A stretch of 46,120 bases of DNA, the filler included, from Streblomastix strix (Eukaryota): NCBI GenBank assembly GCA_008636045.1. It is 2 parts of 2 records of this genome, joined end to end, with 100 filler letters (N's around TTAATTAATTAA, not from the genome) between each part and the next. Parts side by side here need not be neighbours in the genome. Positions count along the whole stretch, not along the records: positions 1 to 23,014 come from SNRW01000301.1; 1 more part is not named here. The stretch is one strand, 5' to 3'. The translations under genes and the position numbers were made by a program. Below the pieces are notes generated by a model. It was not told where the DNA came from. It saw only the letters and a list, made by a program, of their open reading frames with translations, and made no database searches. Shown one piece after another: positions 4,671 to 42,265 of this stretch; within the stretch, counting starts at the first letter, position 1, and the number at the start of each line of letters is the position of its first letter.

Positions 4671-4982
4671 ATTCAATGATTAGAAACCAAACGATTAAGA
4701 GTTTGACGAATATTTTCTTAGTTATTTATTTGCACTATCAGTTGATTTCATAATTGCTTTGAATTTTTTTTACCAAATGTATTTATTAGTATTTCAATAT
4801 ATTGATATATCTCTTAAATTTTATTTTAAAGTACTTAAATTTATTTAATAAAAAATTAAAGAAATTTTGGTATTTATCATAACGCCAGACAATTATCGAT
4901 GAAATAAAAAATTTACGCTTTTTTCCAGACTGTACTTTATTTAAATATTTAAATTTGTAATTATTTTTCTTATAACACAGTT

Positions 4983-7900
4983 ATGTTGATATTTCCATTA
5001 CTTATTGCAGGTATAAGCTGTATCCGTGTGCCTTAATTCCTGTTTTTTTTATTTTCCGTATTTTATTTTTTATCAGCCTAAACAATCATATCTGGAGGAA
5101 AGAAAACTACCACAGTAGATTTCTCAGAAACACGAATTCTTTACTCCGTTGCAGATATCACAGAAAGCCCTCCTATTAGGCGATGGCCACAACTTCAAAA
5201 TGAAACGCTCTGTGAAGAAAGAAGGAGTGCCATTAGAGATGCATTTTAGTGTGCATGGGAGTCATACACACGAGATGCTTGGGGTAATGATGAGGTGAAG
5301 CCACTGACGCGAACCAATTCAAACTGGTTGGGCGGATTTGGAACAACAATAATTGATTCCATATCAACAATGAAGATCATGGGCTTAGATTCGCAATACG
5401 AAAAAGCTAAAGAATGGGTATCATAGATGGAAATGTACCGTAATACAATCACTTCACTCTTTGAAACAGGAATAAGAATCCTAGCTGGGTTAATATCAGC
5501 CTATGATATGACTGGAGAACTGATGTTCTTAAAGAAGGCAGAATAGATTGGAGATATTCTGATTACTAACTATGAGACGAATAAGGAGACTGGAATCCCA
5601 ATGTATGTCAGAGAGAGAAGATGTAATTATTATATATATATTATATTACTTTATTTATATATTCATTTATTCAGTAATAAAGTCTATGTAGGAAAACCCT
5701 AGAAAAAAGAAACATATAAGTATTCATAAATAATATTTAATGAAAATGAAAATATTTTCCTCTTTTTCCTTATATTTCATTTAATCAGGATTCGAAAAGT
5801 GCAAATTTTAGAAGAAATTGAAGATAAAAATGTATGAAAAACTACATTAAATTGAATAATATTTTATGTTATTCTATAATTTCATATTATTTTATGTTAT
5901 TCTATAATTTCATATTATTTTACTATATTCTATAATTTCATATTATTTTATTATATTATCACAACTTATAGTCATATCTCTCAGATCCAAAACCAATCTT
6001 CTTTAATCCAAATAATACTGATCTTCTTCCCACTCAATAATCATCATAAACTAATTCATAATAATCTCAACATCTTAATTAATTCTAAGAACAATAAAAA
6101 ATATTATCCAAACAATTTGGCAAAGAATTAATGAATTTACTTTTGATGAATAAATAAGATAAGGATAAGGATAAGAATAAAGTCAATTTAGAAGAAAATA
6201 AAGAGATTGTTAGTGAAGAAGAAAGTATGAATATATTTTCCTATTTATTTATTTAATACAATTATTATTATAGATGCCTATATTGCAGAGTTTGGTTTAT
6301 GGGTTGAATTTGTGGCTCTTTCTGATAGAACAGGTTAGTATTCATTAATAAATAAGATAATAACAATATTAATTAAATAAATATTTCTATTATATCTTCT
6401 GATCATCATATTTATTATTATTAGGAGATCCTCATTATGCATTTCATGCTCTTAGATCACTTTAGAGTGTGCTTCTTATCCCATAAAAGAAAAGAGGAGA
6501 AATATTGAGGTTTATTTTGTTACAATTATAAGGATAAATAATAATAATAAAGGATTAATTCAGATTAATTAATTTAATTAAATAAGACTATTTATTAATT
6601 ATATTTATGATATAATATATCTCACTTTCATATTTATTAGACGAGTGTCATTAAATGCATCCTCATATACAGAATAATGCTTTTCAGTTGGTGCAATGGC
6701 TGATTCATTCTTTGAATATTTAATTAAGGAAGAAATATATTTGGGCGAATCTTATTAATTGAAGTATAAATATATGAACTAATAAGTAAATTATACATGA
6801 ATAATAAAATAATTATATTATGGCATTTATCATTTTCCTGTATTAATCATTTATTTTAATGTTTCTTTTCTTAATTTCAACAGTTTATATAACGGTCCTA
6901 TTAATACAACAGAAGATAAAAAGGATAATTAAACAAATAGTAATGAAAATGATAAATTAAACAAATAAGAAAATAAAGATAACAAACCTGAAAAGAAAGA
7001 AAAGGTATAAATTAAGGATAATGATGATGGATTCAATTACAAATAGCATAATTAGTAAGATATTAAAGTTAAAGAAGTAAAAGAATTGAATTTCAGTAAT
7101 AATAATATAATTGAATAATAGAATAATACAGATCAAGATGATAGCGAAGATTATATTGTATATGTTGATGAATATAAAAGACTTTCTTTGCATTGGATAG
7201 ATACTATGCTAGCATTTGATTCTAAAATGAGAGTAAGATTAACTCCTGATTATTTAACTGATAAAGTTGAAGATTAAAAAGAAACAGTGAATGAAGAAAG
7301 AATCAATTCAGAAAACATTGATATAAACAGTAAAGAAAAAGATGAATATCTTCCTCCATTGGATCTAAGATGGATATCAGGCACTGATTGTACATCCAAT
7401 AAATTCACTCACTTATCATGTTTTGTTCCTGGGAATCTTGCATTAGGATCATATTACTTGAATAACTATACATTACCAGATAAATAACTTATAAATAAAG
7501 TGAAGAAGATGAACAGTCATTTGGATCAATTGAAGTTGGGTTGGGAGAGAATAATAGAAGAAGAAAGAAGAAAAGATGAGAAGGAGAAATAATAAGAGAA
7601 ATAATAAGAGAAGGATAAAGAATAAGAGAAATAGAAACTGAATGAGAGTTTGGAAGAAGAAGAATAAGAATAATAGATGACAATGTTTATGAGAATAAAA
7701 TATAAGATAATTAAATGGATTAAGTTGAATACATAAAAAGTAATAAGCATATTTAAGATAAATAAGAAGAGCAGATTAGAAAGAAAGAAGAAAGAAATTG
7801 AAGAATAAATGAAATTGGAGGAATAAATTGAATTGAATAAGAAAATAAGAGAAGAAGAAATAAGGAAAAGAAAAATTTAGGAATAAGAATAATAATAACA

Positions 7901-9203
7901 AAATTAAACGTAATAAACTCAATAATAAAATTAATCTCAATAATAAAACTTAACATAATAATAGTCATAATAATCCTAATAACAATCTCATAACAAATCC
8001 TCATCTCAATAATCTCGTATTCCCCCATCACAATACCCAATAATATCTCCAGTGATCATCGCCAGGTTGCATCAATTAGCTGTTGACTTGGGAGAGACAT
8101 GTTATTCAATGTATTCTAACTCACCATCTGGACTACCAGGAGAATGGATTGATATGGAGGCTCTTGATAAGTAGAGTGAATAGAAGGACAATAAACAGGA
8201 ATTGAATAAAGATGATAATAAAGATAAGAAGAAAGATAAGATAAATAAATAAAGAGAAGGAAAAGGAGAAATAGAAGTTGTTGAAGAAGGAAAAGAAAAG
8301 AAGAAATGGAAACAAAATGAAACAAAACTGAATTAAACATCTTCTAATAACACTTCACAAAACTAATCAATATAAATTAATTCAAATATATAATAATAGC
8401 AGTAATAACAGGAATAATTAAAAACAGAACCAAAACATCATCCTAATATAACAGTTATCAATACATAAGAAGATTTAATTAATACGATTAATAAGAATAA
8501 TTCTAATAATTTAATTAGTACCAACTTAACATTAACAGAATGGAGGCAACTTCCAAGTATTAAAGGCGATGATAGATTCATGTTGAGACCCGAAGTTGTT
8601 GAGAGCCTTTTCTATTTGTACAGGTGTGTATTTAGATTGATTAAATATTATATGAATTAAAAAATAGATTAATTAATATTTAATGAATATTTTTATTTAA
8701 ATTTAAATATAACAGAACTACAGGAGACATTAAATATTAAGAAAGAGCATGGAAAATATTTCAGGTTGTTATTATTATTTATTATTTCGTTCACATTTTT
8801 ATATTTTTTTATCTATCATATATTTTATTATTAAATATTAACTTTTTATTAGTCAATAGAAAAGCATTGTAAATTAGTGCCATCATATCCAAAAACATAT
8901 GATGGAGCCTGTTAAATGAATAATTATTAGTAATCATCAACATAAATATAATCAGCATCATAGAGATATTAATCATAATAATAACAACCTTCTCATCTCA
9001 AAGGATATGCAGAACTATCAGAGTCCAATTCTCTTAAACCGTCTCTTTATGATTCACAACCAAGTTTCTTCTTAGCAGAAACCTTAAAGTATCTTTATTT
9101 GATATTCAGTGACCCAGCAACTGTAATTCCTCTGGATTAATGGGTATTCACAACAGAGGCACATCCAATTGTTAGGAGAAAGTATCTAAGAAAAAGAATA
9201 TGA
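4983..9203 (+). CDS. Class I alpha-1,2-mannosidase (glycoside hydrolase family 47), multi-exon, with long Q/N/K/E insertions
   Basis: Signal-like [12 protein letters not shown]47 motifs: [134 protein letters not shown] at 9201-9203. Confidence 0.93.
5859..5950. repeat. Intronic tandem repeat, about 26-bp unit (tattctataatttcatattatttta), about 3 copies
   Basis: Read directly from the sequence. Confidence 0.8.
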
Positions 9204-9967: not shown

Positions 9968-12710
9968 TCAATACTTCTTCATCTTTTTTGCTTAATATTC
10001 TTCAGCTTTTTGTTTGGCCAACTCAAGAATAGATTCATCTAATTTAAATTAAGTTGATGTTATGTCAGAATTCTTCTTATCTTTCTCATTCTTCTCATCT
10101 GGTTATGATCCGCGTACTTTTAACTTCTTTTATTGGAGTTTCTTCTGAATCTGTTCCTGTTTCCTCTTCTTTATGACATCAATTGCAATTCCCTTTCCTT
10201 ATTCTCCTTCTTCTTATTTATCCATTTGTGGTTCTTATCCAGTTTCATTTCTTTTTTGTTTCTTTTCTCCATCTTCTGATTCATCTGAGAATTCATAATT
10301 CTTTTCAATATCAATTTAATCTTCATCTTAAATATAATCTTCATCTTCATCTTTTCTAATCCTTTTATTTCCTTATACTACTCCAGTATTATTTAATTCT
10401 TTATCTTATTATTCATTCTCTTATTATTCTTCTTCTCTTGTTCTTTTAATTGGTTTTAATTAATCTAAATCTTTACTATCAAATTAATCATCATTTATAT
10501 AATTATCTTATTCTTAATCTTATTATTAATTACTCTTCTAATTTCTATTCTTCTTTTATTACTTATTCTTATTTTGTTCTCTTCCTCTATTGTTATTGTT
10601 GTTGTTATTATTATTATTATTATTACTTCTTTCTTAATCATTCTGATAATTAAATCCTATCTGATTACTCTAAGTTACTTCCATAATTGGGATCCCCCAC
10701 ATTGTAAGACACTATTCCCTGACTTGTTATTGATTCACAGGAACAAGATTATCATTCCTGATGTATCTGAGTATATTCTCTAATCCTTCTTTCTACTATT
10801 GAGCTATTGTTATATTGGAATTACGAATGAATTGAATGAATTGGTTGGGTATTTGTGTTACTGGGTATAAATGAGTAATTTAATTTGGAGGTTAAGGTTT
10901 AGATGAAGAAGAAGATGAAGAAGAAGATGATGATTAAGAAGAAGATGATTAAGATGATTATTTATTCTATTTCTAAAGAGCAAGTTTGTTGATCATGTAA
11001 TTAACATAGAGAAGATATTCAAATATATTCTCTACTTGATCTGAACCTGAATCTTTTTTAATTTTAATATCACTTTTTCTATCTTGATTTTAATCTTAAT
11101 TATCTTCCCAATTCCTTCTCAAATATTTAACCATAATATTCTTTCTTTATTAATTAGCTTATTTTTCATCTTCTTCTGTCCAAACTAATTCATTATCATT
11201 TTCTTATCCTTTTTATTATTAATCTTTTTCCATTACTTTCTCTTTTGATTTATTTATTCTACTTGTTTCACTTATCATTCTTTGATCTAATAAGAATCCT
11301 CTACATAATACATATCTTTCAGAATTAGCAGGTCTTGATTATAATGGTTTAATTATTGCAAATGAACTGAATACAGTACTTAGTAAGTAAAGTAATTCAA
11401 CAGTGAATGGTGTATATACATCAAATATCTTGCATAAGAAAGTACCTCCTTATCTAAGTACCCCCAATGCTGTTGTGAATTAACATAGGACAAGTTGACG
11501 GAGTTTTAATTCTTAACTATTATAGTCATCATCAACACTGAATCCACCATCTGCAGTTACAAGACTTACGCCAATTCCTCCTGTTTATGTCATAATAACT
11601 TATCTAAATGCACGAATATTGGCTTCCCTTGTCACATCCCCATTTGAATGTGGTCCATATATTGGATGAAACTTATCAGGTGGAGACAAAGCACCAAATA
11701 AATCAAGTTTGAAGTCATCCTGTCCAGTGAGTGTGAATCCCCATCCACGAGCTTATCCCTGACATCTCCAACATATGTATTCAGTGAACCCACCTGGACC
11801 TGCACAAATATCAGCATATGTATCCAGAGGGTGTGGAATGAACATTGGAAGTGCAGACATCCTCTCAGAGACTATATCTTCACGTACAAGCCCAAACAGT
11901 GAGTCCAAATTGGCCATCTTCATAGCTGCTCTATTCTGGAATATCTCTTTCCCTATCTTTTCATATGGGTTACTCTTTGATCGAGCTGTGCGGAATAACT
12001 TTGGTGGGACATCATCAAAGGATGATTTCAATTTGAATATTCGATCAACAAGCACAGATTCTCCAAATGTATCTGAATCAATCTAAGGAAGTTTGGATTC
12101 CTGTATTACCCATGATTTATGATAACCTTATAATGATCTTTATGCACTCAAATCAAATTCACATATAATATCTACTAGTCTAATCTCTCTATGAATGTCC
12201 ATATCTTCATCTAGATCTATATCTCCAGTATCAACCTTCTCTTTCTAACCTTTGAATCCTATACCTCTTCTATCTCCATCTAATTATGCATTTAGCATTG
12301 GAGCAAGTGGATCAATAGTTAATTTAGATGTATTTTTGGATTCTTCTTCTTCTTTTGCTTTTCTTTCTGCACGCATCTTATTTAGTAAATTATCAAATAT
12401 CTCTTTAACCTGAATGTATAGAAAGTTTAATACAATTAAATTAGTTAAACAAAAAATATAGTCATACAGCATTGGGATTGTTAGTCGAACGCAAAAATTT
12501 CCTTCTTCTGAAAAAGTCGGGAGGTGGTCGAGGATCTAGATCTATCATCCATTTAGGATCCATATATGTTTTATTACTAGGGTTGTACAGATTATCAGGA
12601 TCTCTAAATTAAATCCATTAATCATTAGTTTGATACTACGCGTACCGATTGTTTCGCGTGTCTTTCTCTGGCCTTTTTCCTGTACTTGAAGATCTCTGCT
12701 GCTGTGCCAT
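9968..12710 (-). CDS. CMTR1: Cap-specific mRNA (nucleoside-2'-O)-methyltransferase 1-like (FtsJ/RrmJ family)
   Basis: FQNRAAMKMANLD, ADICAGPGGFTEY, GFTL, GDVT, LVTADGGF, QELKLRQLVLCQ, GGTFLCKIFD and KPLQSRPANSERY give the K-D-K-E tetrad. ATG at 12710, one intron at 12410-12467, TGA at 9968-9970, long low-complexity C-terminus. Confidence 0.92.
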
Positions 12711-12822
12711 TACTACTGACCTAATATACAACAAAATAGGTTAAATTTAATGAATAATAAACTTAAAACATAAAAATAATTAAATTGAATCAGAGTGTAT
12801 CAAAAAAGTAATTTAGGATTTC

Positions 12823-12857
12823 TTTAAAACGCGTCAGTGATTTTAAAACGCGTCAGT
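12823..12857. promoter_or_regulatory. Tandem duplicated TTTAAAACGCGTCAGT motif upstream of CMTR1
   Basis: Two exact 16-bp copies (12823-12838 and 12842-12857), CpG-containing in very AT-rich DNA, about 115 bp 5' of the CMTR1 ATG. A regulatory role is inferred only. Confidence 0.45.
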
Positions 12858-12879
12858 AAAATTTTACCCCTTGTTCAGT

Positions 12880-13230
12880 ATATATATTTGTATAGTAAAT
12901 ATGTCAATGATGAATGTTTAGCTTGGAGTATTTCTAGTAACGCACTACACCAAGAAATACAGGTAGATTTTGTAAATTCATAATGTTTCGCTTGTTTTAG
13001 ATAGCATTAAAGTATTTGAAAATATAAAATTTCAAGTTAAAAGCATTAAGTTCAACAAATTATTATTAAATAAATTCATAAAAGCTTTTATTGGTGTAGA
13101 AACTGGCAGTTCAATTGTGAGAAATTTTCCAAAATCAAGTTACATTTATTTCTAAAATTATAATGAAATTAAGAAGATTATAATAGTATAATTAAAAATA
13201 ATTTGTAAAATAAATGCTTTCCATTGATGC
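12880..13230 (+). pseudogene. Degraded intronless ORF fragment, possibly part of the viral element
   Basis: Coding-like pieces in two frames: YSKYVNDECLAWSISSNALHQEIQVDF and DSIKVFENIKFQVKSIKFNKLLLNKFIKAFIGVETGSSIVRNFPK. No clear start codon. Confidence 0.3.
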
Positions 13231-13261
13231 TTATGATTGATGAGAAAAATAAATGTTGTAC

Positions 13262-13864
13262 TCATTAGAAAAGTTCAAACTCGTGTATAACCTTCGTGTG
13301 TTATATTGGTTATTCCTCATTCATCTACTCCTAAGGAGAAACATTTTCTTTCAATATTTCTGACTTATGTTCGATTGGTTGAACTTCCTTCTACTTTAGT
13401 TACTTAAGTTTATTTTTATATTTTTATATTTGTTTCTATGATTGTATGTGTTATTCTTTTATAAATTTGTTTTCTGTTCTTAACTGTATTAGTTCTTCAA
13501 AATCTAGTTAAGGATTAGTGTAGTTAATATTTGGAGCTTTTTATTAATGTTTTTACTTGGTGTTTTTATTCATTACTTTAGGCTTTACTTTAGGAATAGT
13601 TTCTTCTTCATCATCAGCATCGTCATCTTATTCATCTGTGTTGTCTTCATCATTCATATACATTAGACGGGTGTCGACAGGCTTAGGTTGCGGACGTATA
13701 GCCAATAGCTTATTCTATTGTGCTTGAGTCAGCACCTTAGGACCTTTATAACCATCTTCATATACCTTAATCTACTTGCCTACTTACATGATATAACCAT
13801 TGTTGAAGCTCTCTAATGAAGTGCCGTTTTCTTTTAATTTTCTTAGTGCATGTGATTTGTCCAT
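13262..13864 (-). CDS. Viral-element hypothetical protein, 200 aa, with acidic tract and coiled coil
   Basis: Uninterrupted with TAR=Gln: MDKSHALRKLKENGTSLESFNNGYIMQVGKQIKVYEDGYKGPK...DEDNTDEQDDDADDEEE...HEFELFQ, then TGA. Start context TAAATG. Confidence 0.75.
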
Positions 13865-13896
13865 TTATCAATAAATAAATTTTTTAATCAATAAAA

Positions 13897-14469
13897 ATGA
13901 TTAAAAGTATCGAGAGGAATTAACTCCGTATGAGTAAATCAAAGAAGTAAATATAAGACATGAAAAAAGAGTTGTCAGAAGATGATAGACTAAGGTTATA
14001 ATCAATTGATTAAGCACTAAGGAACTTATCAAATCCGCAATAAGAAGCTAACGAAGTGGATATGATTAATGAAGTTAAGTCTAAGAGGCATTATAATAAA
14101 AATAAATATCGTGATGTAGAACGAGAGACTACATAAGTAGAACCTGAGGAAGTAGTTAAAAATACATTCTTAGCACATCCAAATTTATAGGTAATGAAAT
14201 TTATAATTGATAAAGTGTGGAGTAATGTTACATAAAGAAAAAGAGGAGAAGATTTTATTTTCAGTTCTGATAACTTTATTAAATTTTGGTCATTGATAAC
14301 ATAAGAAAATGAAGATGATATAAAGATAGTTTTAGAAGAACCAATAATGTAATCACATACTTATATGAGTAAGACGTATAAGAAAAAAGACTTAGTAAGA
14401 GTAATGGATTATACTCATTAAAAATGTAAGCATCAGTGTATTGGATAATGTGTTGTTCAACTCTGTTGA
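13897..14469 (+). CDS. Viral-element hypothetical protein, 190 aa, Cys-rich C-terminus
   Basis: Uninterrupted with TAR=Gln: MIKSIERNQLRMSKSKKQIQDMKKELSEDDRLRL...FIIDKVWSN...KCKHQCIGQCVVQLC, then TGA. Confidence 0.75.
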
Positions 14470-14567
14470 GAAACTGTATCGAGTAAATAAAGATCTAGTT
14501 AGATTAAGTGATAAGCCGTAGTCAGAAGTGGATCCAAACGAGTTTTGATCAATTTTTTTTTAAGTAA

Positions 14568-15609
14568 ATGGAAACATTAATTGAACCAACTGATGAGGAA
14601 CTAGTTAATATACAAAAACAACTTTAAGAATTACCGCAAAAATAAGAGGAAATAAAGTTATTAGAGAAATTGTAAAAATAACTAACCCCTTTTATTGATG
14701 CAGAGATTGTAAAACTATTTACTTACTTTAGTTAATATATTAAAAATAAAGATGTTGATGTATCACATTTGGTAACATTAAATTCTACTAAAGTCATTAC
14801 TGGAGACAAAACTTTTACTTAACCTATTGTAGTAAATAATATTATAAAGACAAATGGTACATCAAACTAAATTCTATTGGTTAATGGTGATACAAGTGAT
14901 GTAGGAGATTTTTTGCCTAAATATTATCCTCATGCAATGGGTTAAATGATTATTGAACCGAATGATGACATACGTAATTAAGGTATTAGGATAATGAAAA
15001 ATAAAGCGAATTGGGATAGCTTTGTTCTCACTGGTTGTAATGCTGACCCTACAGATAGAGATGGAATATGGAAAGTTGGATCAACTTCATTATAGTTTAG
15101 AATATAAAAATAAGAGGATGAAGCATATGATTATAAGGGATTAATTATTGACTTTGATTGTACAACATTAAAATTTAACAATTAAATTGTATCACCTATT
15201 CCAACTCCTCCTATAGAAAATGCTATCAAATAAACAATTGCTTATGGTATGTATGAGTAATTAGTTTGGGGTTCATTTACAACATATAATGGAAGGGCTT
15301 ATTTATCAGTGTAAGTAACACATAATAATCCTAACACATAGACTTAATCTACCTATACATTATTCTCTGTTTTTTAAAGATGAAGCTAAGCCATAGTTTA
15401 CAGGGACACCTTTTAATATTCCTTTGAATGCTGTTATGTTTGCATAAAAAGTATTAGGATATCCTATATGCTGGAATGGTGCTATTCCAATAGACTGTTA
15501 TATTGATGTAGATGGACATGTTAGAATCAATACAATGTGTTAATTAAATTTACCGGATGGCTTTTGTGTTTAAGTATGCGATTTATATGCCCTACATAAT
15601 TAATCATGA
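14568..15609 (+). pseudogene. Fibre-like protein 1 (phage tail-fibre-like motifs) with a +1 frameshift at the T6 run 15370-15375
   Basis: METLIEPTDEEL...LVTLNSTKVITGDKTFTQPIVVNNIIKTNGTSNQILLVNGD...GLIIDFDCTTLKFN. Frame 0 stops at TGA 15381-15383; the +1 frame continues KDEAKPQFTG...CDLYALHNQS to TGA 15607-15609. Confidence 0.7.
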
Positions 15610-15729
15610 ATAAATTGAATTTCTTACTTCATCACTAATCTCTTCATTATCTAGTTTTATTTGTTATATCGTTAATAAACAACATAGTAGATTGTTAAGA
15701 GCTATAACTATTAATGAAATACTACTCAT
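15604..15729 (-). CDS. Small 41-aa protein with hydrophobic N-terminus (viral element)
   Basis: MSSISLIVIALNNLLCCLLTIQQIKLDNEEISDEVRNSIYS, then TGA. It fills the gap between the ATPase and fibre 1. Confidence 0.45.
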
Positions 15730-15761
15730 TATTTACCAAAACATTTAAGTAAAAATAAAAA

Positions 15762-16794
15762 TCAATTGCGAATAATTTCAAATCTATTTTAATACTTGTT
15801 AATGATTATAAATTCATACTTATTTAATGTGTTGTATATTATCATTAGTTCTTACTCCGTCAGTGTGTTGATGTGGTTTTCTTCATAAACTTACTTTAAG
15901 TCATTGTCTGATATACCAGACCCTATGACTATTACATGACATAATTTTCTAGCAGTTTTAAAAAGATAACATGGTCTTTAGGCTACATAAAACAAAGTAT
16001 TTTTCGCGTGTCTACTATCACTGATTAAGTGAGTTATTGTACGTGATAACTCTGAGGTATAACGTTGTATATCTGTGTTAGAACCTATATCGTCAAACAT
16101 CATTAGTGTAAATAACAACTTAGCATTCGTTAGTATAGGTAGTTTTAATGTTTTGATTATCTCTACACCATCTTCATCTACCTCATGTGTGTCAACGATT
16201 TTCAGTCCTTTTTCATATGACACATTTTGTATCAACGGAGGAATAGAAAAACGTGATACTTTGGTTGGTAGGCTATACGTGTTAATTGTTTCAATACAAT
16301 AGACTTTGAACACTTCTTTCATTCTATTGGGAAACTACTAATAGGACTCATCTTTTTTTTAATTCATTAGAATCAAACATTTCTTACTTGAATCTTTTTA
16401 TGTAATCATTGTTATATCGTATATTCATTTACTTTAACTTATAGTACGTGTATATCTCTTTAACTTTATATTTCAGTTCATCAAATTGAGGTAAGAAAAT
16501 CATAGCTTCATTATATGTCATATTTGTTAGTAGCACTCCCTTATCATTCATATTGATAGCCATAGTCTCGTCTGGTCCTATGTTAGAGAAGTATAACATG
16601 TAAAGATTGATAATATGTTTATATAATATTATTAACTTAGATAGTAAAGTTGTTTTACCACTTCCAACAGCTCCAACTATATAGTGGTTTCCATTAATAA
16701 CAAAGATTGATTTTGAAGTCAATGGTTTTGTTTTATATTCTTCTAACATGCTGTAATTATCGAATTGAAAATGGTTAATATCTTATGAAGTCAT
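15762..16794 (-). pseudogene. FtsK/HerA-superfamily (A32-like) viral genome-packaging ATPase with a +1 frameshift at the A8 run 16353-16360
   Basis: Walker A YIVGAVGSGKTT, Walker B LMMFDD, arginine finger SRH and sensor-Gln strand LFYVAQ (Q is TAA). Joins track ORFs 16429-16749 and 15978-16322; about 343 aa when corrected. Confidence 0.85.
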
Positions 16795-16810
16795 TTATTA
16801 AAAATTGAAT

Positions 16811-17178
16811 TCAAACTTTTTGATTTTAATTTATTAATTTCAAAGTAATTAGATACCGATAACGTTTTGCTAACTTTAAATCTTTATCATCTATTGCTAA
16901 CTACACTAATTAATACAACTCGTCAATCGTAAGCTAATTCCATTATTTTTAATAACATCATTCTAGGAATCCATTTTTCTATGATAAAAAAATTTAACAA
17001 TATACAGTACAATACTTATAGGTATAACTATAACATCAATATGACTCCATAATTTTTTAAATACATTAATCAATTCTTATGCTTCAGGAGGAAGTGCTAG
17101 ACTGATTACCGACAACAATAAGTTAGCACCATAAAAAGTCTAATTTATAACAACGGTTATCAACAATGTAATGTTTAT
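16811..17178 (-). pseudogene. Degraded small membrane protein gene of the viral element (start codon ATA, one frameshift)
   Basis: NITLLITVVINQTFYGANLLLSVISLALPPEAQELINVFKKLWSHIDVIVIPISIVLYIVKFF..., then in another frame QWNQLTIDELYQLVQLAIDDKDLKLAKRYRYL. TAAATA stands where neighbours have TAAATG. Confidence 0.5.
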
Positions 17179-17193
17179 TTATTTTTATTTAAA

Positions 17194-19135
17194 ATGCAAT
17201 CATTAATGTAATAACAACTGTCAGTAATAAAACGATTTATACATTCTGATATAAGTTATTATATGTAATATTCAAAGAAAAATACATCCAGTAGCATTAC
17301 ACAGAGCAATGAATATAATTAGATTATAGCTGATTAAAATAACTTGTTGTATTGTTAGAAAAATAACTCCTCAGAATAAGCTGTGAAACTAACTCCACAG
17401 GGTTTGCTAGTAGTAAATAATCTATAATTATTAAACAATGATTTTCTTTAAAAAATAACTCAGTTAGAATAACAAGTATATCAGATATAATAATAGATAA
17501 ATACTAGCATATAAGACATTGGTTAGTTATAAACAGATGTACAAATAATAAACTAAGAATTATCGAGATAGATACATTTCAGAGGATACTTTGCAACGAA
17601 TGGTGAGATACTAGCTTTGTAAGATAGTGCTATGGGTGATTATGCGTATAGTGCAGAGGATTTACTAGTATGGGTATATGAAATGACGGAGTCCCCGCCT
17701 GCGGCAAACTGGATTGAAACAGATCAAGTGGTACCAGACTAAGTAACGCCGGCTAGTGATACTATACCGTCAAACCCTATTGTAAATGGTAATGCAGGAG
17801 TGAGTACGGAATATAGTCGTGGAGACCATTAACATCCACTATAAGTATCAACAGTATTACTATAGTAAGATACTGCAACTGGTGAAGTAGGCACTGCTGT
17901 CACTTATGCTAGATCCGATCATACTTATCATGTAAATCTAAGTAGCAGTGTACCTCTTAAAGATACTGGAACTGGAACAGCAAGAACAGATAGTGTATAT
18001 GCTAGTGCTACACATTACCATCCATTAAATGTTGATCCCAGTAGTGTGATTGTTCCGTTAGTAAATGCTACTGTTGCGGCTAATGGTACGAGTGATTATT
18101 ATTGTAGAAATGATCATGTCTATTCTTAATAATTAACATATGATGGAAACATTATAGCGACTAAATTTATTAAGACTGGTGGATTACCAACAGAAGTGTT
18201 ATGCGCTAATGGTTATACTACAACAATAGATGCAAAGCTTTCACTTACATATTCAGCGTATAATTCTGTATAAATCATTAGACTACAACATTATTACACC
18301 GTTAATGGTATCAATACCGTATATGGAGTGTTTACTGCTCCAACTAGAGTTACATCTTATTATTTAATAGATAATGGTGCCAATTAATTATTTCATAATC
18401 ACTCTGGTTCTAGGACTTCTGCAATTTATTCAGCATATGTTAGATTAGAATCGGCTGGTAACGTTACGATAGTTGTATCTGATTAAAGCACTTATTATAC
18501 AAATAGAATCACAGAGATATTAACATAAGATGTAGTCTCCAGAGTATCAAATGGTACATAAATACCAATTAATTATGATTTAGCTAATGGTGGAATAATA
18601 AATAATAAGTTATAAGTTAATCCAACAGGACGAACATATACTAAGTTTAATAATGGTATTAGAATTGGAAACTATAACACTGAATACTCATCATTATATT
18701 TATGATGTTCAACTACAGCTATAGATACTACACGAACTGGTTAATGGGAAATAAGTAAAACAAGTGATATAGCATTAACAATAAATCCGACATCTTTACG
18801 ATAAACTGATCATAGTGTTGGTTTATCTATTAATAGTGATAGTTCAATAATAAAATTTAATGGTAATGAATTAGTTAATGTTGGAACTGATTAAACAATT
18901 ACAGGTAGAAAGACATTTGGAGGTACTACTTTAGGTAGTATTTAATTAAATCCAACTGATACAAATTATCCATTATTAGTATTCAATAATAATAACAATT
19001 ATTTGGAGTAGAACAGCTGACTAAAATATAGATAGTAGAGGACTAATGATCTTAGCTGATGGAAACACATTATCTTTCAATGGATCAGTTATCGCTGGCA
19101 CAGGAACAACAAATGGAGCTACGGTAATGTAATGA
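17194..19135 (+). pseudogene. Fibre-like protein 2: coiled coil, four H-x-H-type repeats and beta-rich fibre modules; internal TGA at 18703-18705 and disrupted 3' end
   Basis: About 503 open codons from ATG 17194: HFRGYFATN, YSRGDHQHP, YARSDHTYH, YASATHYHP, YCRNDHVYS, FIKTGGLPTEVLCANG. After the TGA it continues GTDQTITGRKTF, then in a shifted frame RGLMILADGNTLSFNGS. Confidence 0.78.
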
Positions 19136-19298
19136 AAGCAGTCATAATTCATTAAAGAAACAGATCAAATTTTAGTGTGAATAAAGAAAATAAATTTTAA
19201 AATTTCAATAGAATTAAAAGGAATTAATCTCTTTTGATCTTATTTATTGAACAGAACAATAGTCGCAAAGCAGATTATGCAATATAAATTATCCAGTT

Positions 19299-20484
19299 TC
19301 ATTTGTTACTCTTATTAAATTGATCTTTATTCTATTTGAAGCCCTGAACAACAGTGAATGATATGTTTGTAACTGTTACTCTTGGTTCTTCCATTCCAAT
19401 ATCATAACGCTTAATTTTAGGTGAACCAAATGGATTCTTTTGGAATGGAGGAGTGATCTTTGTTTGCAAGTTCCTGAATTATTTATAAATATATAATTTA
19501 TATTAAATACAATAAATAAAGTTCATATTTAAAACCTTTAATCGATATACTTTGTTGCATATTCAAGTTCTTCATCATTTCTAACTGTAATAAGTGTTGG
19601 GACATTCAATTCTCCAATCTCTTCCATTGTAATTTTCCAAGGATCTTATTTTTTCAGTGCCATTTTAAGGATATAATCGTCAGGCCTTTCAAAATTTGAT
19701 ATGAAACCTAAAACAGGATTAAATAGTACGATTAGATAAGGTTATAATCTTTATCCAGTTTATTTCTTCTTTCGACACAACTCATCAAATGTTGATCTAA
19801 TAAATGTTACATTCATTCGATCAGAAATTGTACGTTCTTTCATTGCTTACTCACAATTTGGTGATAGATCAGGTCCAACGAATATGATATTGAAATGAGC
19901 TTATGGAAAGAAACGAACAATTTCACCCCAGAAATGAACTTCTTGATTTGTTTGAGCATTTAATTGATATTCTTCTGTTTGTTAATTTGCACCAACAATG
20001 TAGATATTATTTGGATTTTCTGGTCCGAATTTTGGAAAATGGAATAAGTATTGAAGAACGAAAATAATTGTCATTGGATAACTAAGAGCTTCAGTAATTT
20101 ATTTGGCAATAAATTCCCATCTAAAGAAATCTTAGTTAAGATTTTAGTTGTACAACTTTCCTCTTGCGAAATAATCTTCTCAGTTTCTTAATATAAACAT
20201 TTAAAATGGATTCATATTAAAAATGTTGTCCTCTTCTTTTGAAACATCTGCTTTTTTTTATACTTCTGAAGTTAAAAGTTGTTGAAAATTCTTGCATTAC
20301 AATTTATGAATCTTCCAATGCTACTTCTAATGTTCTTTGCAACTGAATATATGCAAAATAACATCAAATTTTTATTTGATAAATATATATAGATTTGCTC
20401 AAACCAATAAGGTGTAACTTTGCAAGCTGAACATTACGTAGCACATTCTTTTCCACACACAGCACATGTACGTTTTTTATCCAT
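19299..20484 (-). pseudogene. zf-MYND plus MSS51-like C-terminal domain protein, 2 introns, in-frame TGA at 20180-20182
   Basis: CAVCGKECATQCSACKVTPYCCKEHQKQHWKIHKLQC (MYND), then LSYPMTI, IYIVGA, IIFVGPDL, LFNP and NPFGS. Introns at about 20343-20404 and 19474-19535. Confidence 0.8.
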
Positions 20485-22044: not shown

Positions 22045-22400
22045 GTAGTGGGCAAACAGGGGGTCAGCCCTTAAGAAAAATTAAAAAAATTATTCGGCAT
22101 AAAAATTGATTTATATTTAATAATAAATGATGAACGATAACAGATATTTTATGCAACTGTTGAAGAATTATTTATAAAGAATACTCATAATCATTATTTT
22201 AATATGATTATTGAAATAAATTTACTAATGAAAAGAAAATGAATTATCTTTGATGAATAACTTTAATAATGAAAATTAATTATACGTGCAATGGCTATGA
22301 ATATTGATATACGTTGCTTTGTGCGTTAATTTGATTAGATTATTGATAGCGATAATTTTTTTAATTTTTCTACGGGCTGATCCCCCTGTTTGCCCACTAC
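22045..22400. mobile_element. MITE-like non-autonomous DNA transposon, about 356 bp, with about 50-bp imperfect terminal inverted repeats
   Basis: Left end gtagtgggcaaacagggggtcagcccttaagaaaaattaaaaaaattat; the right end reverse-complements to gtagtgggcaaacagggggatcagcccgtagaaaaattaaaaaaattat. AT-rich non-coding interior; no clear target-site duplication. Confidence 0.8.
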
Positions 22401-23014: not shown

Positions 23015-23114
23015 NNNNNNNNNNNNNNNNNNNNNNNNNNNNNNNNNNNNNNNNNNNNTTAATTAATTAANNNNNNNNNNNNNNNNNNNNNNNNNNNNNN
23101 NNNNNNNNNNNNNN
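23015..23114. other. Artificial 100-nt contig linker (N44-TTAATTAATTAA-N44)
   Basis: Symmetric N runs around a 12-mer with TAA in all six frames, exactly 100 nt in total. Confidence 0.9.
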
Positions 23115-26100
23115 TTTATCAACAACTTCGCACTAAGAACGGTTACATTCAAGCAGAACGCTGTCCACACCGATGAATGGTTTGATATTTTAAATGTTTC
23201 TTGTCGACAAAAGCATTATAAATATTCTATTTTTTATATTTTATTAAATTTATTTTTTTATCTGTTATATTTACAAGATGATGTAAAAATTAACCGACTG
23301 TTCGAGTGGGATGAAACTGCCGAAGATTGGATCGTCAATTGTATGAAATTTCTTAATGAATTCAAATTAAAATCACTCTTTTCATTTAATTATTAAATGT
23401 AGCTGCTTATGTTACTGGCCCACCATTCACTTCACCTTCAACAGTTAGTGATTACAATGGCAAAACGCAACAGTTTTTCTTGGCATCCGCCAAAGATTCT
23501 GATAGCGTCTCTGATGTTGCTCTTCCGCATATAGAAATTACTTCTTCTGATACAACTCTTGCGAACTTGCACTATACTGAAAAATATACATTTGACACCG
23601 GTCCTAAATTTGCGCCATCTTATATTCGCCGAACAATTGCTTATATTACATTTGATTCTACTTGCACTGCATTTGAATTTGACAATGTAACTCTACTGTT
23701 TGATTATTTTATTGATTATTTCATTTATTTTTACTCATTTATTCAAATTGATTAGAGGACTTGACATGGAAGGTGCTTCTGTAATAACAACATTGAATGC
23801 AAATTCTAATTTAATTCTTACTTTTAAAAAGTATGATTTATTATCTTTTCAATAATTTCTTTTATATTATTATATTTTATTACCTTTATTATAATAACAA
23901 AATTTAGTTGTGAATTCGGTAATATAAAACTGATGTCAATGCTTGTATGATTATTTTTTTCAATATTTAAATAAATTAAAAAAATATCATAATTAATAAA
24001 TTAAATATTCATTTACTTTTCTATTCATAATTTATTATATTATTTTTTCTCAATAAATATCAGGATAATTCTTCAGGTTCTCCATATACATGGTACTACT
24101 CTGCACTTCTTGATTTGATAGATGGTTTGAATTATATGTTTAATTGATAATAAAATTAGATATTTATTATTATATGCAATTTTTTTTTATTATTAATTAT
24201 TTAAATTTTAAACATATTTTTTAAATTGTAGGAGCATAATTGAATTTTCTTGATTCGCAAGTACATGGTATTTTTTTTCAATTATTTCAATTTTTATATA
24301 ATCATAAATAATCTTTAATTTAAATTTAAATTTATAATGTTAATATTAATATTAGTTACTTAATTATACATTAAAACATTATTTTTTTAATTTAATTTAT
24401 TTGTATACATTCAGATATACAAACATGGGACTATTCAGTGATTGCTATTTCATCTCAATACTCAACTGTAACTATAAGCAGATCATTATTTCAATTTGTC
24501 ACTCTGAAAAGAGCATCATATGAAACTGATGATTATGTTTGCAATAAATTAATTAATTAATATAAATTGTAAATATTAAATATAAACAATTTTAATCATA
24601 GATGATTTGAATTAAATTAAACATATTTTTATTAATTAAACATATTTTTATTAATTAAACATATTTATATTAATTAAACATATTTATATTAATATTTCTA
24701 CATAACAATTCCACATTTCACATCTTTTTTTTTCTTTTCTTCATCATTATCATTTCATTCAGTCATCTACACATAATTGTCTTATTCACTATCAAGTAAT
24801 GGATACTTCATCTTCATCTCCAAGTTAACCAACAAATATTATTCATATTTCTGATTCATTATTTGGAAAAGTGACCGTTGACAATGTGAATATCCGCGAA
24901 GTTGCATTGGAGGAGTTTGATTTGGTATGATTTAAATAATTGGTTGAAAATGATTTTTTCATATTTTTATTTATTCTATAAAATATTTATTATTATTATT
25001 ATTATTATTATTTGTTTAATTAAATGTTCTTTTATATATTTTCTATTAATTTAGTAAGCTAAATATGCATCTTCATAATATTATAAGAGATCTGCTGATG
25101 AATTGAATCTTCCAATTGTTAATACTTCTGACTATGCTACATTAATGATTGAAGTTGACAATGCTGGTATATTCATTTATTTGAATGAATATTAATATTA
25201 ATATTAATATTATTTGAAAAATATATTTATTTTAATAAATTATTAATTGTAAACATTTATTTATATTATATTCTTTTAATCTTCATTCATAGCTACTACA
25301 GGAATTGGGAATGCTGATGTTCAAATTACAAGAACAAGGTTTATTTCAACACATGGATCACATTCAGGTATATAAAGATCATATTATATTATTTATTAAA
25401 ATTTTAACTTTATTTATTTATAATCGTTTAAACATTATTATTTCACATTTCTCATAAATAAATTAAATCCATATATATTTTTATGACTAATTACAGGTGC
25501 TGTTGATATTCGACAATCAATATCAACTATTGTACTTGACTAAGTCCATTTCTTTTCAACTGTTTCTGAATTGGGGGTATTTTGAATAATAATTTGAATT
25601 ATTAATAAATAAAAATATTATAATTTTTTTTAATTAACCTTATATTCATTTTTTTACTATTTTCATTATTAACAATTATTAACTGCAGTCAAGATATGTT
25701 GATAATTCATAGTTTGGTAATGCAGTCTATTTAAGAGGAGAACAAATGTGGTAGTTGATTAAGACTGATAATTTCAAGAGGTATTAAAAATATGTTGATT
25801 CTTTAATAAAATGAACAATAATGAATTAAAAGGAAAGATATTTGTTTTAATTACAAAATAATATAAATATTAATTAATTAATTAATATATTAAATAATTT
25901 ATTAAATAATTAATTTCGTATATACATCTCTTTTTCTTATAAATACAGATCCTATATTCGTGGTGATACTCCACATATAACAACTGAGAATTCTCATAAT
26001 GAAGCAAATTCAACAGATACAATGTTGAGACAATACATATAGAATATCTTAGTTAAGAAAGGTGGATCAACTTTGAGCGGGGTTTGTTAGATAAATATAT

Positions 26101-35100: not shown

Positions 35101-38100
35101 AGTAAATCGAACTGAGATTATTTAGTTCAGAAAACAGCATAAATTCGTTGGAAATAAGAAAGTGACAAGACATATGATTAAGTTTAATAATGAAAATAGT
35201 ATAGGTAATAATAATTAGAATTAATAACTAAGCAATGAATATAAATAAAGAAGATTCAAATAAATATGGCTTGAAGGAGAAATTATAGGAATTACAGAAT
35301 AGATGGAATATATTAAATAAAAAGAAGCTAAATTAAAATTAAACTAAAATATCGATAATAATAAACAATTAATTTAATAATATCAATATCAATAACAACA
35401 ATATTAATCCAATCAATACCAATAAACGCCATCTTCATATTCATCTTCTTTTTCTTTTCATCAATCCCACACCTTAAACGAACCCATGTCTCCTATTACA
35501 TCCTATCCATGCACAATGTCACTCTCTAATGTCACATTCTCCAATATATACCCAGATGTGAATTATACTGAGAGGGGAATAAGTGTGAATATGCAGATGA
35601 ACTCCTTCTTTATATCTGCGAGCCCGCACATGATGTATTAGATCAGTAATTGTTTGTTTTAGAAGTGTGGTAAATATGATAGAGAATAATTTATTTAACA
35701 TATATATATTTTAATTTTTTAGTTATTGATTATTTTATTTGTTATTTTGTTAAATTTATTAATTTAGTACCACTCACATTCTGATTGATTTAAATGTTGG
35801 CGAAAGAAGTTAAATAACTCCAGATATATCCAATATAACTTTTGACAGGTAATTAATAAATAGTAATAAAAAAATTAATCATTTAATAGTTTTTAATAAT
35901 AAAATATTTTTTTTATATTCCATATTATTATTTATTTATTTATTTCATATTTAGAGTGCGTTTCATACAAATGGGATCAGATCTACTGACAACTCCAACA
36001 GGAACAACTTGTAAGGATAACGATTTCATTCAAAGTGCTGCTCAAGTTGGTGCTGTTGTTGTTAGAGCTGGTTTTTTAATAAGAATTTTTTATTATTTTA
36101 TTATAATATTATTTTATTATAATATTATTTCTGTATTTAATTTATTATAAATATTTATTTATTAATAATTTATTTAAGGTCGTACCTCACTCACAGTAAG
36201 TGATCATCTTGCCAGAATCAAATAATAATATCCTTAAGTAATGCCAGATTCGTTGTATAATGATTATCGTAGATAGAGAATATACTTTAGGTACATAAAT
36301 GTATATTATTATATATTTAATTATTTATTTATATTTTCTTTTATATATATTTTCTCTTTATCATAACTTATTAACATATTCATAGATCATGCGTATTTAT
36401 CCAAAACAACGGCACATATGTCAATGATGTAGGAATCGAAGAAGATTTAGTGATATCAGAATTAAATAACAATCAATTTGGACTTGGATTATATTATAAC
36501 GGATTTGCTGGAACAGATTCAAATGAGAAAAACACAGCAGAAAACTGCTATTTTGGATATGAACAAAAATAATGCTTTGATGGAAACGCGGTTTCACAGA
36601 GCGATTTAAACAGGAATATCTTCAATTATATCAAAGAGAACACAATTGACCAAACTTTTGCATCATATGAACTGTCTAGTGATACAAGTAAGACAAGTGA
36701 ATGGGACATTAGTCAGTTCTTTGTTGGGGAGTATAATAAACAAGCTATGAATAGTACTGTTTAGCCAGACGATGACGACAGTTATAATAAGATTGTATGA
36801 AAATTATATAAATTATAATTAAATAAGAAAATAAAAAAAAATAATGAATATTTAATTATTTTATGGTATTTTATCTATATTTTTTATTTATAGGGTATTA
36901 TCTCGCTGAAATCTGCGATAATTGATCCATTAGCTGAAACAGCTACATAATTAACAATACAGCAAGGAGTATATGTTGAGAGTGGAATTAAGATAATAGG
37001 TTAAGTAAAATAGAATATAAAAAATTTTAAATTTATATAATTGTTAAATTTCATATTTCTATATTAATATGAATAGATGGTATACTTCTTCTAATTCCAT
37101 CTGATTCCTTAACAAATGAATAAGTAACTATTCAACCATAAAAGAGTTTAGCTAAGATTGGATTGTACGAAATGCTTTATTATTTTAAAAGAATTAAAAA
37201 TAAATTGAAATTATTTATTTGTTTTTTATTATTTAATATTATTAATAGATTTGAAGATGGAGTTTCATCAGCTGTACTATCAGTTGAAGGATCTGGAAGG
37301 ATTGAAGTTGAGAGAATTACTTTTGAACACTTTGAATAGTAGACATTGAAGGTTTGAGATAAAGAAATTTAACATACAATTAAAATTGCTAATTTATTAA
37401 TAAAAAAAATATGTATTAATTTATTTAACTATTAATAATTCTTTATTTATTCATTCTTCCAGCCCGTCCTAATAATCAAAGATCAAGGCTCCATCCAAGG
37501 TTCCAATCTCCGATTTATGCCATTTGGCAAATCAAACCAAGCTGATAAAACATCTGAACTAGTTCATACATCATCGTATATATTGTTCCTATAAGGAAGT
37601 GGCTTATTTGAGAATATTGAAGTTTTTCCAACGACTTTCTAAGACTGTCCAGCATTGATGATCAAGAACGAAGAAGGGATGAGCGAAAAAACGAAAGAAC
37701 CGAGAAGAAATCACTAAATTAATAAAAATAATGAAAGAAAACAACAAAATCAACAAAATCAACAAAAATTCCAATAGAACATAGATTTAAATTAAGTTCA
37801 GCTTTAAAACTGCATCTTTAAAGGACTTATCAGGAATGAAGGACTTGGAGCAGCAATTGAGTCCAATGGGATGTATTTAATCATTAATGGAGGAGAATAT
37901 TCAAATGTTGGACAAGAAGTCATCCCGGAATAAACCGATGATTAAAATGCAAGTTTTAATTCATTTAGAGAGTATTCATTTAATTAATAGAGAAAATAAT
38001 ATGATAACAATAAGTATTATTCTTGGAGAAAATCCACATTAACTTCAGCTTCTATGAAAAATAACTATATTAAAGATCAAAATAAATAACGTAATCCGAA

Positions 38101-40604
38101 TATCCTTCTCACATTTATCCGCAAAATAATCAACATAATTCATCATTAATTCAGTTAATAAATTTCTAAATAAACTTAATCATCAACATCATTACCTGTT
38201 GTTACCCATTTCAAGACACCCAATTCACAAACTTCTATTAACGAGACTTCAAATAAGTCTTTATTCACAGGTATTTGCGTTGGTGATTAAGATTATTAAG
38301 TTTAAAAGAATAGAAAATAATAAACAAATAGAAATAATTAACATTAACAATAATAATAATAACAAAATAAATATCTCAATAATCAATAATCAACCAACGA
38401 TGGAGAAGACCAGCCACAACCAGAACAAGGTGACCCATAATAAGACACCAAAGATGATGGACATGGAATTGTAGCTCCATTAGTACCTACATGTGGATGG
38501 TCATCTGCATACATCAGAAATTCCAACTCACAGCTCAGTATTTAAGGATCCGCTCTATTCACACTACTGGGAAAGGGAGCTTTCTCAATAGTTAATACAG
38601 ATATGTAAGTTGAAGATACAGTTATATTCAGTTTGAATAGGAATGGGAATGAAGCGTAGAGTGGAACTTTATTGAGGAAGAATATACTTTGTGGGAGGAA
38701 TTCTGTTATTACTGGAGAATTCAAGTCTTTTGAGGAGGAGAACTAATAATAAGTGAATTCGCTGTGGATTCTGCCGACGGATGAGGATTTGAGCGATGTG
38801 GAGGTATTGTGAATATTTTTATAATATATTCATTTATCTTATTTATATATTTCTTGTTAATTTATTTCTAATAGTTTAGTAATAATTTTCTATTTTTTAA
38901 AATAATTTCATTTATCTAATTAAAAATAGACTCCATCTCCTGCATGTCAACTATAAGGAGGAATTTAATAAGCAGAAGCTCCACTATTTGTTCCGTATGT
39001 TGACAAAGTTGAAGGAAAAGTCTCAAAGTATGAAAATACTAGTTAGAATTTATTATTGGTAAATAAATTGAAATTTTTAGAAGTAATAAAAATTTATATT
39101 TAATTTTTCTAACTTTAAATTTTGCAATATTTTCTGGTATTATATTTAGTGATGGATATGGTTCAGATATTACATTTGTTGGTCATCATTTAGTAAGATG
39201 CACATATATTAGATATGAAGTATGACATTATAAATAAATACAGAAAATTAAATATTATTAAACATAATTTGTTAATTCAACATTAAATATTTAAATAATA
39301 TGAAAATTTTGGGTATTAATATTTTTGATTCATCAATAATTTATTAGGTATGTGAGAAGTACAAAGTGAAAGAAGGAAAAGTACTCACAGAAGAATAAGA
39401 GGTTAAAAAGTTACTTAATTATTCGCTTGATTTTAATTGAATTAAACATTCAATGAATTTAATAAATAATTTAAATCATATTTTTTTTCACTTTACAAAT
39501 AACTTTTTAATGTATTTTATAGGCTGATCGATAGCAGCACTGCCAAGTAGGATTACTTGAGAATGGGATATAGTGGAATGATGAAATGAATGCTATTGTA
39601 TAAACAAGATATAAGATTGTGAGGTTTGAATATATTAATAGTTTTAATCAAAATATTTATTTATTAACTATTTTATTTAATCAGTTAGTTATTATTTCTT
39701 TATGTTCATATTTATTTATAAACTGTTATATTAATAAATTTTAATAGGAAATGGAAAGTAATGGAAGCAGTTCTTTACTTTGGAGATGAGAAATAAACAT
39801 AGAAATTTGATGTTCGAACAGACAAGATGTCAACTGGTATGAACAAATAATAGAAAATTATTATCAAAGCTTTGATTAAATTAGATTAGAAAATATCTTA
39901 TTTTTTTATAAAAATTTAATATTGAATTATCCATATTATTGAGTAAAATTCAATTTTCCTTCAATTCTTTCGCACAATTCAACTCACATTAATATAACTA
40001 TATATATAACTACTATCATTATATTCCATATATAGGTGCCATTATAGGCTGTGTATTTGCAGTGCTTCTTATTATAGGTGGATCTATAGCTGGTGTCATT
40101 GCTGTATATGTCTATACAAAGAAGCAATCTAAGAAGAAGGAGGAAGATAAAGAGAAATTGATGGATGTATGAAGATGATTTATTTGTAAGTGATATGTAT
40201 ATATTAGTAAATGAGGATTTATTTAATGAAGAAATTTTTTGGTGAATATGAAATAGATATATTTATTTTATAATATTTGTAAAATTGAACTAATAATATT
40301 ATATTTGAATTAAATATTGTAGGAATATAACCTTTAGCAAGGTAATTAAACTCAATTTGGAGGTGTAAATAATTTAGAAAATAAAATATAGTAAATGAAA
40401 TTTTTTTTTTTTTTTGATTCTTTCCTTTTTAATTATTCATTCACTCAAATAGATGAATCTGGAACTGCCAACCAATCTCAATCAGGTTCTTCATCATCTG
40501 GATATTAGCAACAACAGTAATAATAATCATTCCTATAACAGTTCTAATAAGCATAATTAAATAATTAAGGATCGAGATTAATGACACCCTCTGATGGATA
40601 ATGA
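23115..40604 (+). CDS. 5'-partial giant type I membrane/surface protein with pectin-lyase-like beta-helix repeats, roughly 70 introns
   Basis: Recurrent motifs GTTTNPIDTIFNAF, GNDVTGQGTQDQPYKTV, GNNQNSGNDSSSVRTISHAF and many xxCxFxxC rungs (VTFDTCT, DCEFDGN, NCIFSECEF, DCTFDTC). TM segment GAIIGCVFAVLLIIGGSIAGVIAVYVY followed by KKQSKKK at about 40036-40145. Q-rich tail; TGA at 40602-40604. Treating it as one gene is inferred, as not every junction was frame-checked. Confidence 0.72.
24612..24692. repeat. Intronic tandem repeat, about 21-bp unit (attaaacatatttwtatta core), about 4 copies
   Basis: Read directly from the sequence. Confidence 0.8.
26103..26192. repeat. Intronic tandem repeat, 30-bp unit (ttgataaaaawatttataataaatacatta), 3 copies
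   Basis: Read directly from the sequence. Confidence 0.85.
29667..29948. repeat. Intronic minisatellite, perfect 15-bp unit (aatttaatcatttat), at least 17 copies, spanning a 10-N gap
   Basis: Read directly from the sequence; it produces the spurious YNLII-repeat ORF in the track. Confidence 0.95.
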
Positions 40605-41890: not shown

Positions 41891-42265
41891 CTTTGAGAAA
41901 TTATAAAGCAAAATTCAGAAATAAATTATTTATATATTTATAAAAATATTAACTAAAAAATTGTGAAATGCTTGTTTAACTAAACATTATATCAAAATAT
42001 TCTATTATTAGATTGAAAACTACCATAAACTTTTCGTGGATTATTTCTACGTCAATTCCATAATTTTTGATTTGTTTTATATTTAATTATTAGTAATGTT
42101 TAAATATATAGTTATATTTTTTAAAATATCATGAATATTTAATGCCATTAGCCTTTAATATTAAACTAAACAGTTTTTTTAATTATTAGATTTTTGCTTA
42201 AATTGATACAGTTTTTTATTTATTTTTTAACATTTTTCTTTATTTCATTAATTTTTAAATAGCAT

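Follow-up and report, generated by a model that had tools for sequence, protein, structure and literature searches.

The TAA codon of an ATPase-like gene in a contig of Streblomastix strix, an oxymonad protist of the termite gut, falls where FtsK/HerA-type enzymes conserve a catalytic glutamine. The question raised by this locus is whether the codon records a virus lineage that evolved under the reassigned code of its host (code 6, in which TAA and TAG, together TAR, are read as Gln) or arose in some other way. The stretch of DNA that was analysed (46,120 nucleotides, hereafter the window) joins two separate pieces through N runs and a TTAATTAATTAA linker (23015-23115); the first piece, of 23,014 bases, carries the element discussed here, and genes past 23116 are not its neighbours. 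Endogenous viral elements of S. strix have been described as sharing the TAA/TAG=Gln table of the host, with a long virus-host association inferred, and host-code use by these viruses is thus already known and in print (PMC10120064); in the available passages of that paper, the claim takes one sentence without a codon-level test. Added here are codon-level support, in the form of a catalytic Gln kept as TAA across copies, and standard-code relatives from metagenomes.

The sensor glutamine and the ATPase that carries it

The first-pass annotation had read the strand following the arginine finger as LFYVA-TAA-RP, and this reading is borne out. The minus strand runs GAT AGT AGA CAC GCG AAA AAT ACT TTG TTT TAT GTA GCC TAA AGA CCA (DSRHAKNTLFYVA-TAA-RP), with the TAA at 15978-15980, and a motif pattern spanning this stretch had a single match in the window and none in 100 shuffles. 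In an alignment of 33 sequences with identities down to 22%, only D234, R261 and Q272 (numbering of the full-length paralog P0003) were invariant, and the TAA occupies the Q272 column. By the definitions given in the accessible part of PMC11703096, these residues correspond to Walker B, the arginine finger and the sensor; the same source places Walker A, Walker B, the arginine finger and the sensor Gln in this order in A32-like and FtsK-HerA ATPases. The gene in the window follows that order on the minus strand: Walker A (GxxxxGK[TS]) is present as GAVGSGKT at 16651-16674 in the N-terminal part, Walker B (hhhhDD) as LMMFDD at 16089-16106 with its D234 found in 33/33 sequences, and the arginine-finger codon (R261) at 16011-16013 is followed by the strand that closes in Q272.

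Profile alignment set the family motif faaQr opposite LLASQRP of HerA (whole-sequence E 0.0027). Pox_A32 was matched by four of 19 family members (best E 4.2e-7) and is a precomputed match on four S. strix paralogs; P0003 and the ATPase pieces in the window gave no Pox_A32 match. When P0003 was searched with phmmer against 1.84 billion representatives, 34 matches were returned, including unnamed metagenomic proteins at 26-37% identity, while single-sequence searches of the PDB gave nothing useful and PDB profile searches gave weak matches alone. The AlphaFold model, which is of P0003 and not of the window copy, reached a pLDDT of 87 from a 33-row alignment and of 36 from a 12-row alignment. 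This model resembled packaging ATPases of viruses, mavirus and Sputnik among them (best named matches E 1e-8 to 1e-7), and also matched STIV B204, HerA and FtsK, which share the RecA-like FtsK/HerA fold. The S. strix family thus has the motif order of vaccinia A32, STIV B204 and the mavirus/Sputnik ATPases together with a fold match; it differs in a long helical insert separating Walker A from Walker B in the P0003 model, unlike the named A32/FtsK-HerA ATPases, in its identity of 8-16% to the named structures, and in the frameshift of the window copy. According to the model, the family folds like A32/FtsK-HerA packaging ATPases, and a role in DNA packaging is predicted. The invariant column and the fold matches bear out the annotation's assignment of the TAA residue to the conserved FtsK/HerA sensor, and the identity of the residue at 15978-15980 as the sensor Gln of an A32/FtsK-HerA-type ATPase is supported.

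The interval 15762-16794 had been taken as a single ORF, which it is not. It comprises an N-terminal part (16348-16794, minus strand), with Walker A, three TAA and two CAA codons and a TGA end that follows a frameshift, and a C-terminal part in another frame (15762-16349, minus strand), with Walker B, the arginine finger, the sensor Gln, four TAA, two TAG and two CAA codons. The TGA of the latter (15762-15764) is a natural stop, matching the C-terminus of homologs. The frame breaks at a T8 homopolymer (16353-16360), across which one contig each of the sequencing runs X1 and X2 is in frame. An intact reading frame is therefore absent from the window copy, while full-length paralogs exist. Under table 11 the ATPase would be divided into open stretches of 3, 117, 14 and 10 residues, then of 3, 0, 118, 28, 12, 20 and 8.

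All 24 of the 24 first matches to the C-terminal part were S. strix proteins (57-100% identity). Among the public gene models, P0012 is 100% identical across 52% of the C-terminal query; this model, from the 15765-16349 region, exits the ATPase frame right before the sensor TAA and ends TLFY-SQGLV, so that the motif is lost from it. In several further S. strix models, parts of the ATPase are merged with antisense or adjoining genes. Automatic annotation of S. strix elements is unreliable, and gene callers using table 11 fragment such viruses and give them wrong names such as 'VirB4' or 'ABC ATPase'.

Codon usage, copies and the case for selection

Internal use of TAA and TAG by the ORFs of the element, as first claimed, was confirmed: stretches chosen as open contain 87 TAR and 25 CAR codons, and no TGA, in 1463 codons, and the element has one nonsense TGA. 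The comparison of CAR with TAR usage that the annotation had suggested gave like shares in element and host, with TAR making up 0.78 of Gln codons (87/112) in the element and 0.71 (152/214) in four host exons, one of which (37517-38809) lies on the second piece of the window (Fisher p=0.24). The ORFs were also said to end at TGA. They do, but TGA is the sole stop under code 6, so that such endings are automatic and carry no weight, and three of the six ends are breaks: those at 16348 and 15383 come after frameshifts, and that at 18703-18705 falls within a homolog alignment, opposite Gly.

The same codons could have come from decay, if a standard-code virus had integrated, died and gained TAA and TAG by neutral C-to-T change in an AT-rich genome. 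CAA needs one transition to become TAA, and as a pseudogene mutation of CAA the sensor TAA would say nothing about selection. The copy in the window did decay: it carries two frameshifts, the nonsense TGA and four private amino-acid changes (non-synonymous, at 15946, 15971, 15988 and 16025, where all X1 depth has the other letter). This copy was set against others by comparing contigs of four runs from two studies with the ATPase gene; one of these runs, X1, may be the source of the window. No RNA run was listed as carrying the element, an absence that does not bear on its expression. At the sensor codon (15978), the sole change among the best-supported 40 of 59 was TAA to TAG, in one low-depth contig, whereas sites near it vary in 8-15 X1 contigs within the same set. 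Copies that are 80-95% identical keep TAR at the sensor while third positions nearby vary. Two CAA codons of the window read TAA elsewhere, that at 16488 in 17, 5, 4 and 1 contigs of the four runs and that at 16067 in 9, 0, 1 and 2. Synonymous changes under code 6 made up 22 of 40 and 18 of 37 of the changes considered (drawn from the best-supported 40 of 59 rows in one list and 40 of 413 in the other), against an expected share of 0.22 (p 5e-6 and 3e-4); these p-values overstate the case, given pre-filtered lists, non-independent changes and an expectation that ignores transition bias.

Other sequences also speak against decay. Full-length paralogs at 56-59% identity are open under code 6, and three metagenome proteins that were called independently (P0089-P0091) end at FLP, right before the Gln that is read as TAA in other copies. 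Decay of a standard-code virus is largely refuted by these observations, and we consider it very unlikely as the origin of the sensor TAA. Instead, the ATPase lineage likely diverged while purifying selection acted on it and TAR was read as Gln, since the sensor stays TAA or TAG, two Gln sites swap between CAA and TAA and the changes lean synonymous. Together with the host-like TAR share, this makes evolution under selection in a TAR=Gln host likely, in line with what had been proposed.

Tabulating the residues opposite the TAR codons of the ATPase, a further suggestion of the annotation, gave a clear result at the sensor, where 14 of 14 distant relatives have Gln, but not at the other eight TAR columns, which are variable. 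All four CAA codons of the ATPase likewise fall in columns that are variable among these 14 relatives, so the non-sensor TAR columns neither support nor refute the reading as Gln. Opposite the nine in-frame TAR codons of the ATPase, P0003 has six Gln, two Glu and one Ser, a match that is partly circular because P0003 is itself translated with code 6.

An intronless element between host genes in the assembly

The element extends over approximately 12.8-19.2 kb (about 6.3 kb) and is intronless. In the assembly it lies, on the same piece, between an FtsJ-family methyltransferase gene (9968-12472, minus strand; PF01728 E 1.4e-30 under code 6) and an exon encoding the C-terminal domain of MSS51 (19523-20074, minus strand; PF20179 E 6.2e-14 under code 6), both of them host flanks outside the element. 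Elsewhere in the window we noted a fragmented host gene of glycosyl hydrolase family 47 (4899-9203, plus strand), tandem RRM-domain repeats of the host (42131-45708, plus strand) and a pair of 49-nt inverted arms (22045-22400; complementary at 84%, spaced by 258 nt and richer in GC than the sequence around them) that look like a MITE or transposon relic.

Two intronless code-6 ORFs on the left, of 200 aa (13262-13864, minus strand; no convincing family match) and 217 aa (13816-14469, plus strand; no family match), are likely element genes. The next gene (14424-15609, plus strand) changes frame near 15361-15371, and stretches homologous to it adjoin the ATPase in the S. strix gene models P0027, P0029, P0078 and P0081; its product presumably resembles a fibre protein. 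On the other side of the ATPase, a long gene with RxDHxH repeats (16981-19135, plus strand), whose product we also take to be fibre-like, is broken by a premature TGA (18703-18705) and seems to change frame further on. This gene matched nothing in Pfam or PHROGs, and stretches homologous to it are fused to ATPase pieces in the models P0027, P0030, P0035, P0038 and P0080. The gene order of the element thus recurs, in that homologs of two of its genes adjoin the ATPase in other S. strix models. An exact 16-nt direct repeat, TTTAAAACGCGTCAGT, with its copies 19 nt apart (12823-12857), lies at the likely left edge of the element and is possibly a promoter or terminal motif.

The position of the element bears on whether a recoded bacteriophage or symbiont sequence could have been co-assembled into a protist contig, as the metagenome-derived records of the source organism (MAG label) and a weak PHROG terminase match of P0003 (E 6.9e-6) would allow. 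Against this, eukaryotic host genes stand on both sides of the element on the same piece of the assembly, the ATPase family has no match in 50,697 phage records and no relative by pattern in GTDB or IMG/VR, and the best fold matches of the P0003 model are mostly packaging ATPases of eukaryotic viruses. TAA and TAG alike stand for Gln in the element, at the ratio of the host; to our knowledge, recoded phages reassign TAG or TGA, not TAA. A phage or symbiont origin is exceedingly unlikely on these grounds, and the flanking genes and the lack of phage, GTDB or IMG/VR matches agree with the annotation's view that phage contamination is improbable.

Whether the element is viral at all is a separate matter. 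The label rests on the ATPase and its relatives, because the window is without a capsid gene (0 of 21 capsid homologs match), its element ORFs include no polymerase/primase-helicase and no integrase/recombinase by Pfam and PHROG, and no terminal inverted repeat joining both ends occurs in 12400-19600; the element measures approximately 6.3 kb against the 15-25 kb expected. The copy in the window has decayed to a fragment and does not make up a working virus. These absences, and the dozens of paralogs in one genome, would also suit a non-viral mobile element or a domesticated host family that has an A32-like ATPase and was amplified, in which case code 6 would simply be ordinary host usage. The element genes are nevertheless intronless whereas the host genes of the window appear intron-interrupted, 820 capsid hits have been counted in the S. 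strix genome (supplement of PMC10120064, as far as available), and the loci of metagenomic relatives are virus-like, with a double-jelly-roll capsid gene predicted no more than about 5 kb from the ATPase in three of seven, a DUF5906 gene in one and a Pox_A22 resolvase in another. We regard the non-viral reading as improbable.

Standard-code relatives and a proposed one-way change of code

The relatives came from a metagenome scan with a Walker A DNA pattern, which yielded nine loci; an earlier scan with a peptide pattern had found no relative among 590 candidates. Two of the nine (L003 and L004) were set aside, being P-loop matches without relation to the family, and seven encode relatives of the ATPase. 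The loci are compact, intronless and virus-like. Those with the predicted capsid gene (665-729 aa) are L005 (770-4329), L008 (1949-10183) and L009 (1777-5363), and their capsid proteins are 26-33% identical to S. strix proteins. In the Atlas, the L009 protein groups with jelly-roll capsids by features and structure, and the Atlas clusters nearest to the three capsids are rich in Parabasalia and Preaxostyla. Fifteen of the 21 matches of the L009 capsid-like protein were S. strix proteins, and one is named a major capsid protein in UniRef. We infer that this ATPase family travels with the 650-aa capsids of S. strix; none of the S. strix models compared joins capsid and ATPase in one gene model. 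As to other contents of these loci, the DUF5906 gene is in L006, the Pox_A22 resolvase adjoins the ATPase in L001 (570-1220), phage-type Gp10_C domains occur in long genes beside the ATPase in L006 (7592-10183) and L008 (4080-8282), and three tandem paralogs of 201-222 aa follow the ATPase in L009. The non-ATPase genes of the window have no detectable homolog in these standard-code loci. Neither the window nor four relative loci yielded a tRNA gene, so that there is no sign there of a virus-encoded suppressor.

Judging from their codons, the metagenomic loci are standard-code elements. The sensor codon is CAA in three and CAG in three of the six standard-code loci with the motif, and the ATPase genes of four of these six end in TAA. 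Among 23 homology-supported genes of relatives (a count that excludes L005, a near-duplicate of L009), 11 end in TAA, two in TAG and 10 in TGA, and a 666-aa gene of L009 contains 29 CAR codons but not one internal TAR. Of the 13 genes with TAA or TAG stops, 10 would be lengthened by no more than 18 residues if read through with code 6. In a tree of 23 ATPase sequences, the nine code-6 sequences lie on one side of a branch supported in 100/100 and at least three other lineages lie outside; the tree is unrooted and carries a warning of long-branch attraction, and eight of the 14 outside rows entered it as protein sequences. The annotation had expected the element to be restricted to hosts with this code. 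That expectation fits the code-6 clade, whose ATPase would stop after three residues under table 11, but not the family as a whole, in which the other lineages sampled have the standard code.

In our view, the segment of approximately 12.8-19.2 kb is very probably a decayed fragment of an endogenous Polinton-like virus, with its sensor TAA owed to a lineage long resident in a TAR=Gln host. Viruses rely on host translation, so adoption of the code of the host is to be expected. We propose that a standard-code ancestral virus entered a code-6 host, where its TAA and TAG stops would have been read through at the cost of mostly short C-terminal tails and then replaced by TGA. AT-biased drift could then have converted most CAR codons to synonymous TAR codons, catalytic sites included. 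Such a process would act as a one-way ratchet, with entry into code 6 cheap and exit not: after recoding, a standard-code host would translate no more than a few codons before failing, which would confine the code-6 clade but not the family. The copy in the window would later have been inactivated by frameshifts, the nonsense change and truncation. More tentatively, the fragment might represent a second, undescribed S. strix lineage that combines a Sputnik-like capsid of about 650 aa with this ATPase, has standard-code sisters and made a one-way code switch.

Among described systems, the Metamonada capsid group of Bellas et al. 2023 (PMC10120064) shares the host species, by homology, and includes parabasalid capsids; in the part of its supplement that was searched, the identifiers of 12 capsids of 650 aa and of five ATPase or neighbour models were not found. 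RNA viruses with inferred protist genetic codes (PMC7508674) and a giant-virus genome in code 6 (PMC13524828) resemble the S. strix element, as far as the accessible parts of these reports go, in having a host-type reassigned code that was used to infer the host; they are metagenomic and their hosts are unknown, whereas the S. strix element lies in a contig of the host itself. The Maverick-Polintons and PLVs of Metamonada are left ungrouped in a 2026 PLV framework (bioRxiv 10.64898/2026.06.19.733378), which in its available portion describes a highly divergent morphogenetic module recognised mainly by structure, as in the S. strix element; its main text, to the extent available, mentions neither Streblomastix nor the genetic code. 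In the literature covered, which takes in few subscription journals, PMC10120064 alone was found to name Streblomastix, and none of the papers found dealt with this ATPase family or with its standard-code relatives.

If a second lineage of this kind exists, a recoded lineage, with TAR at approximately 78% of its Gln codons and at the catalytic one among them, would be locked into code-6 hosts, and genomes from both sides of the switch could test whether code reassignment limits the host range of viruses. Shackelton and Holmes reportedly considered reassigned genetic codes as virus host-range barriers in 2008. The asymmetry described here bears modestly on that idea: a virus moving into code 6 would mostly pay with short tails, while one moving out of it would have every checked gene cut short.
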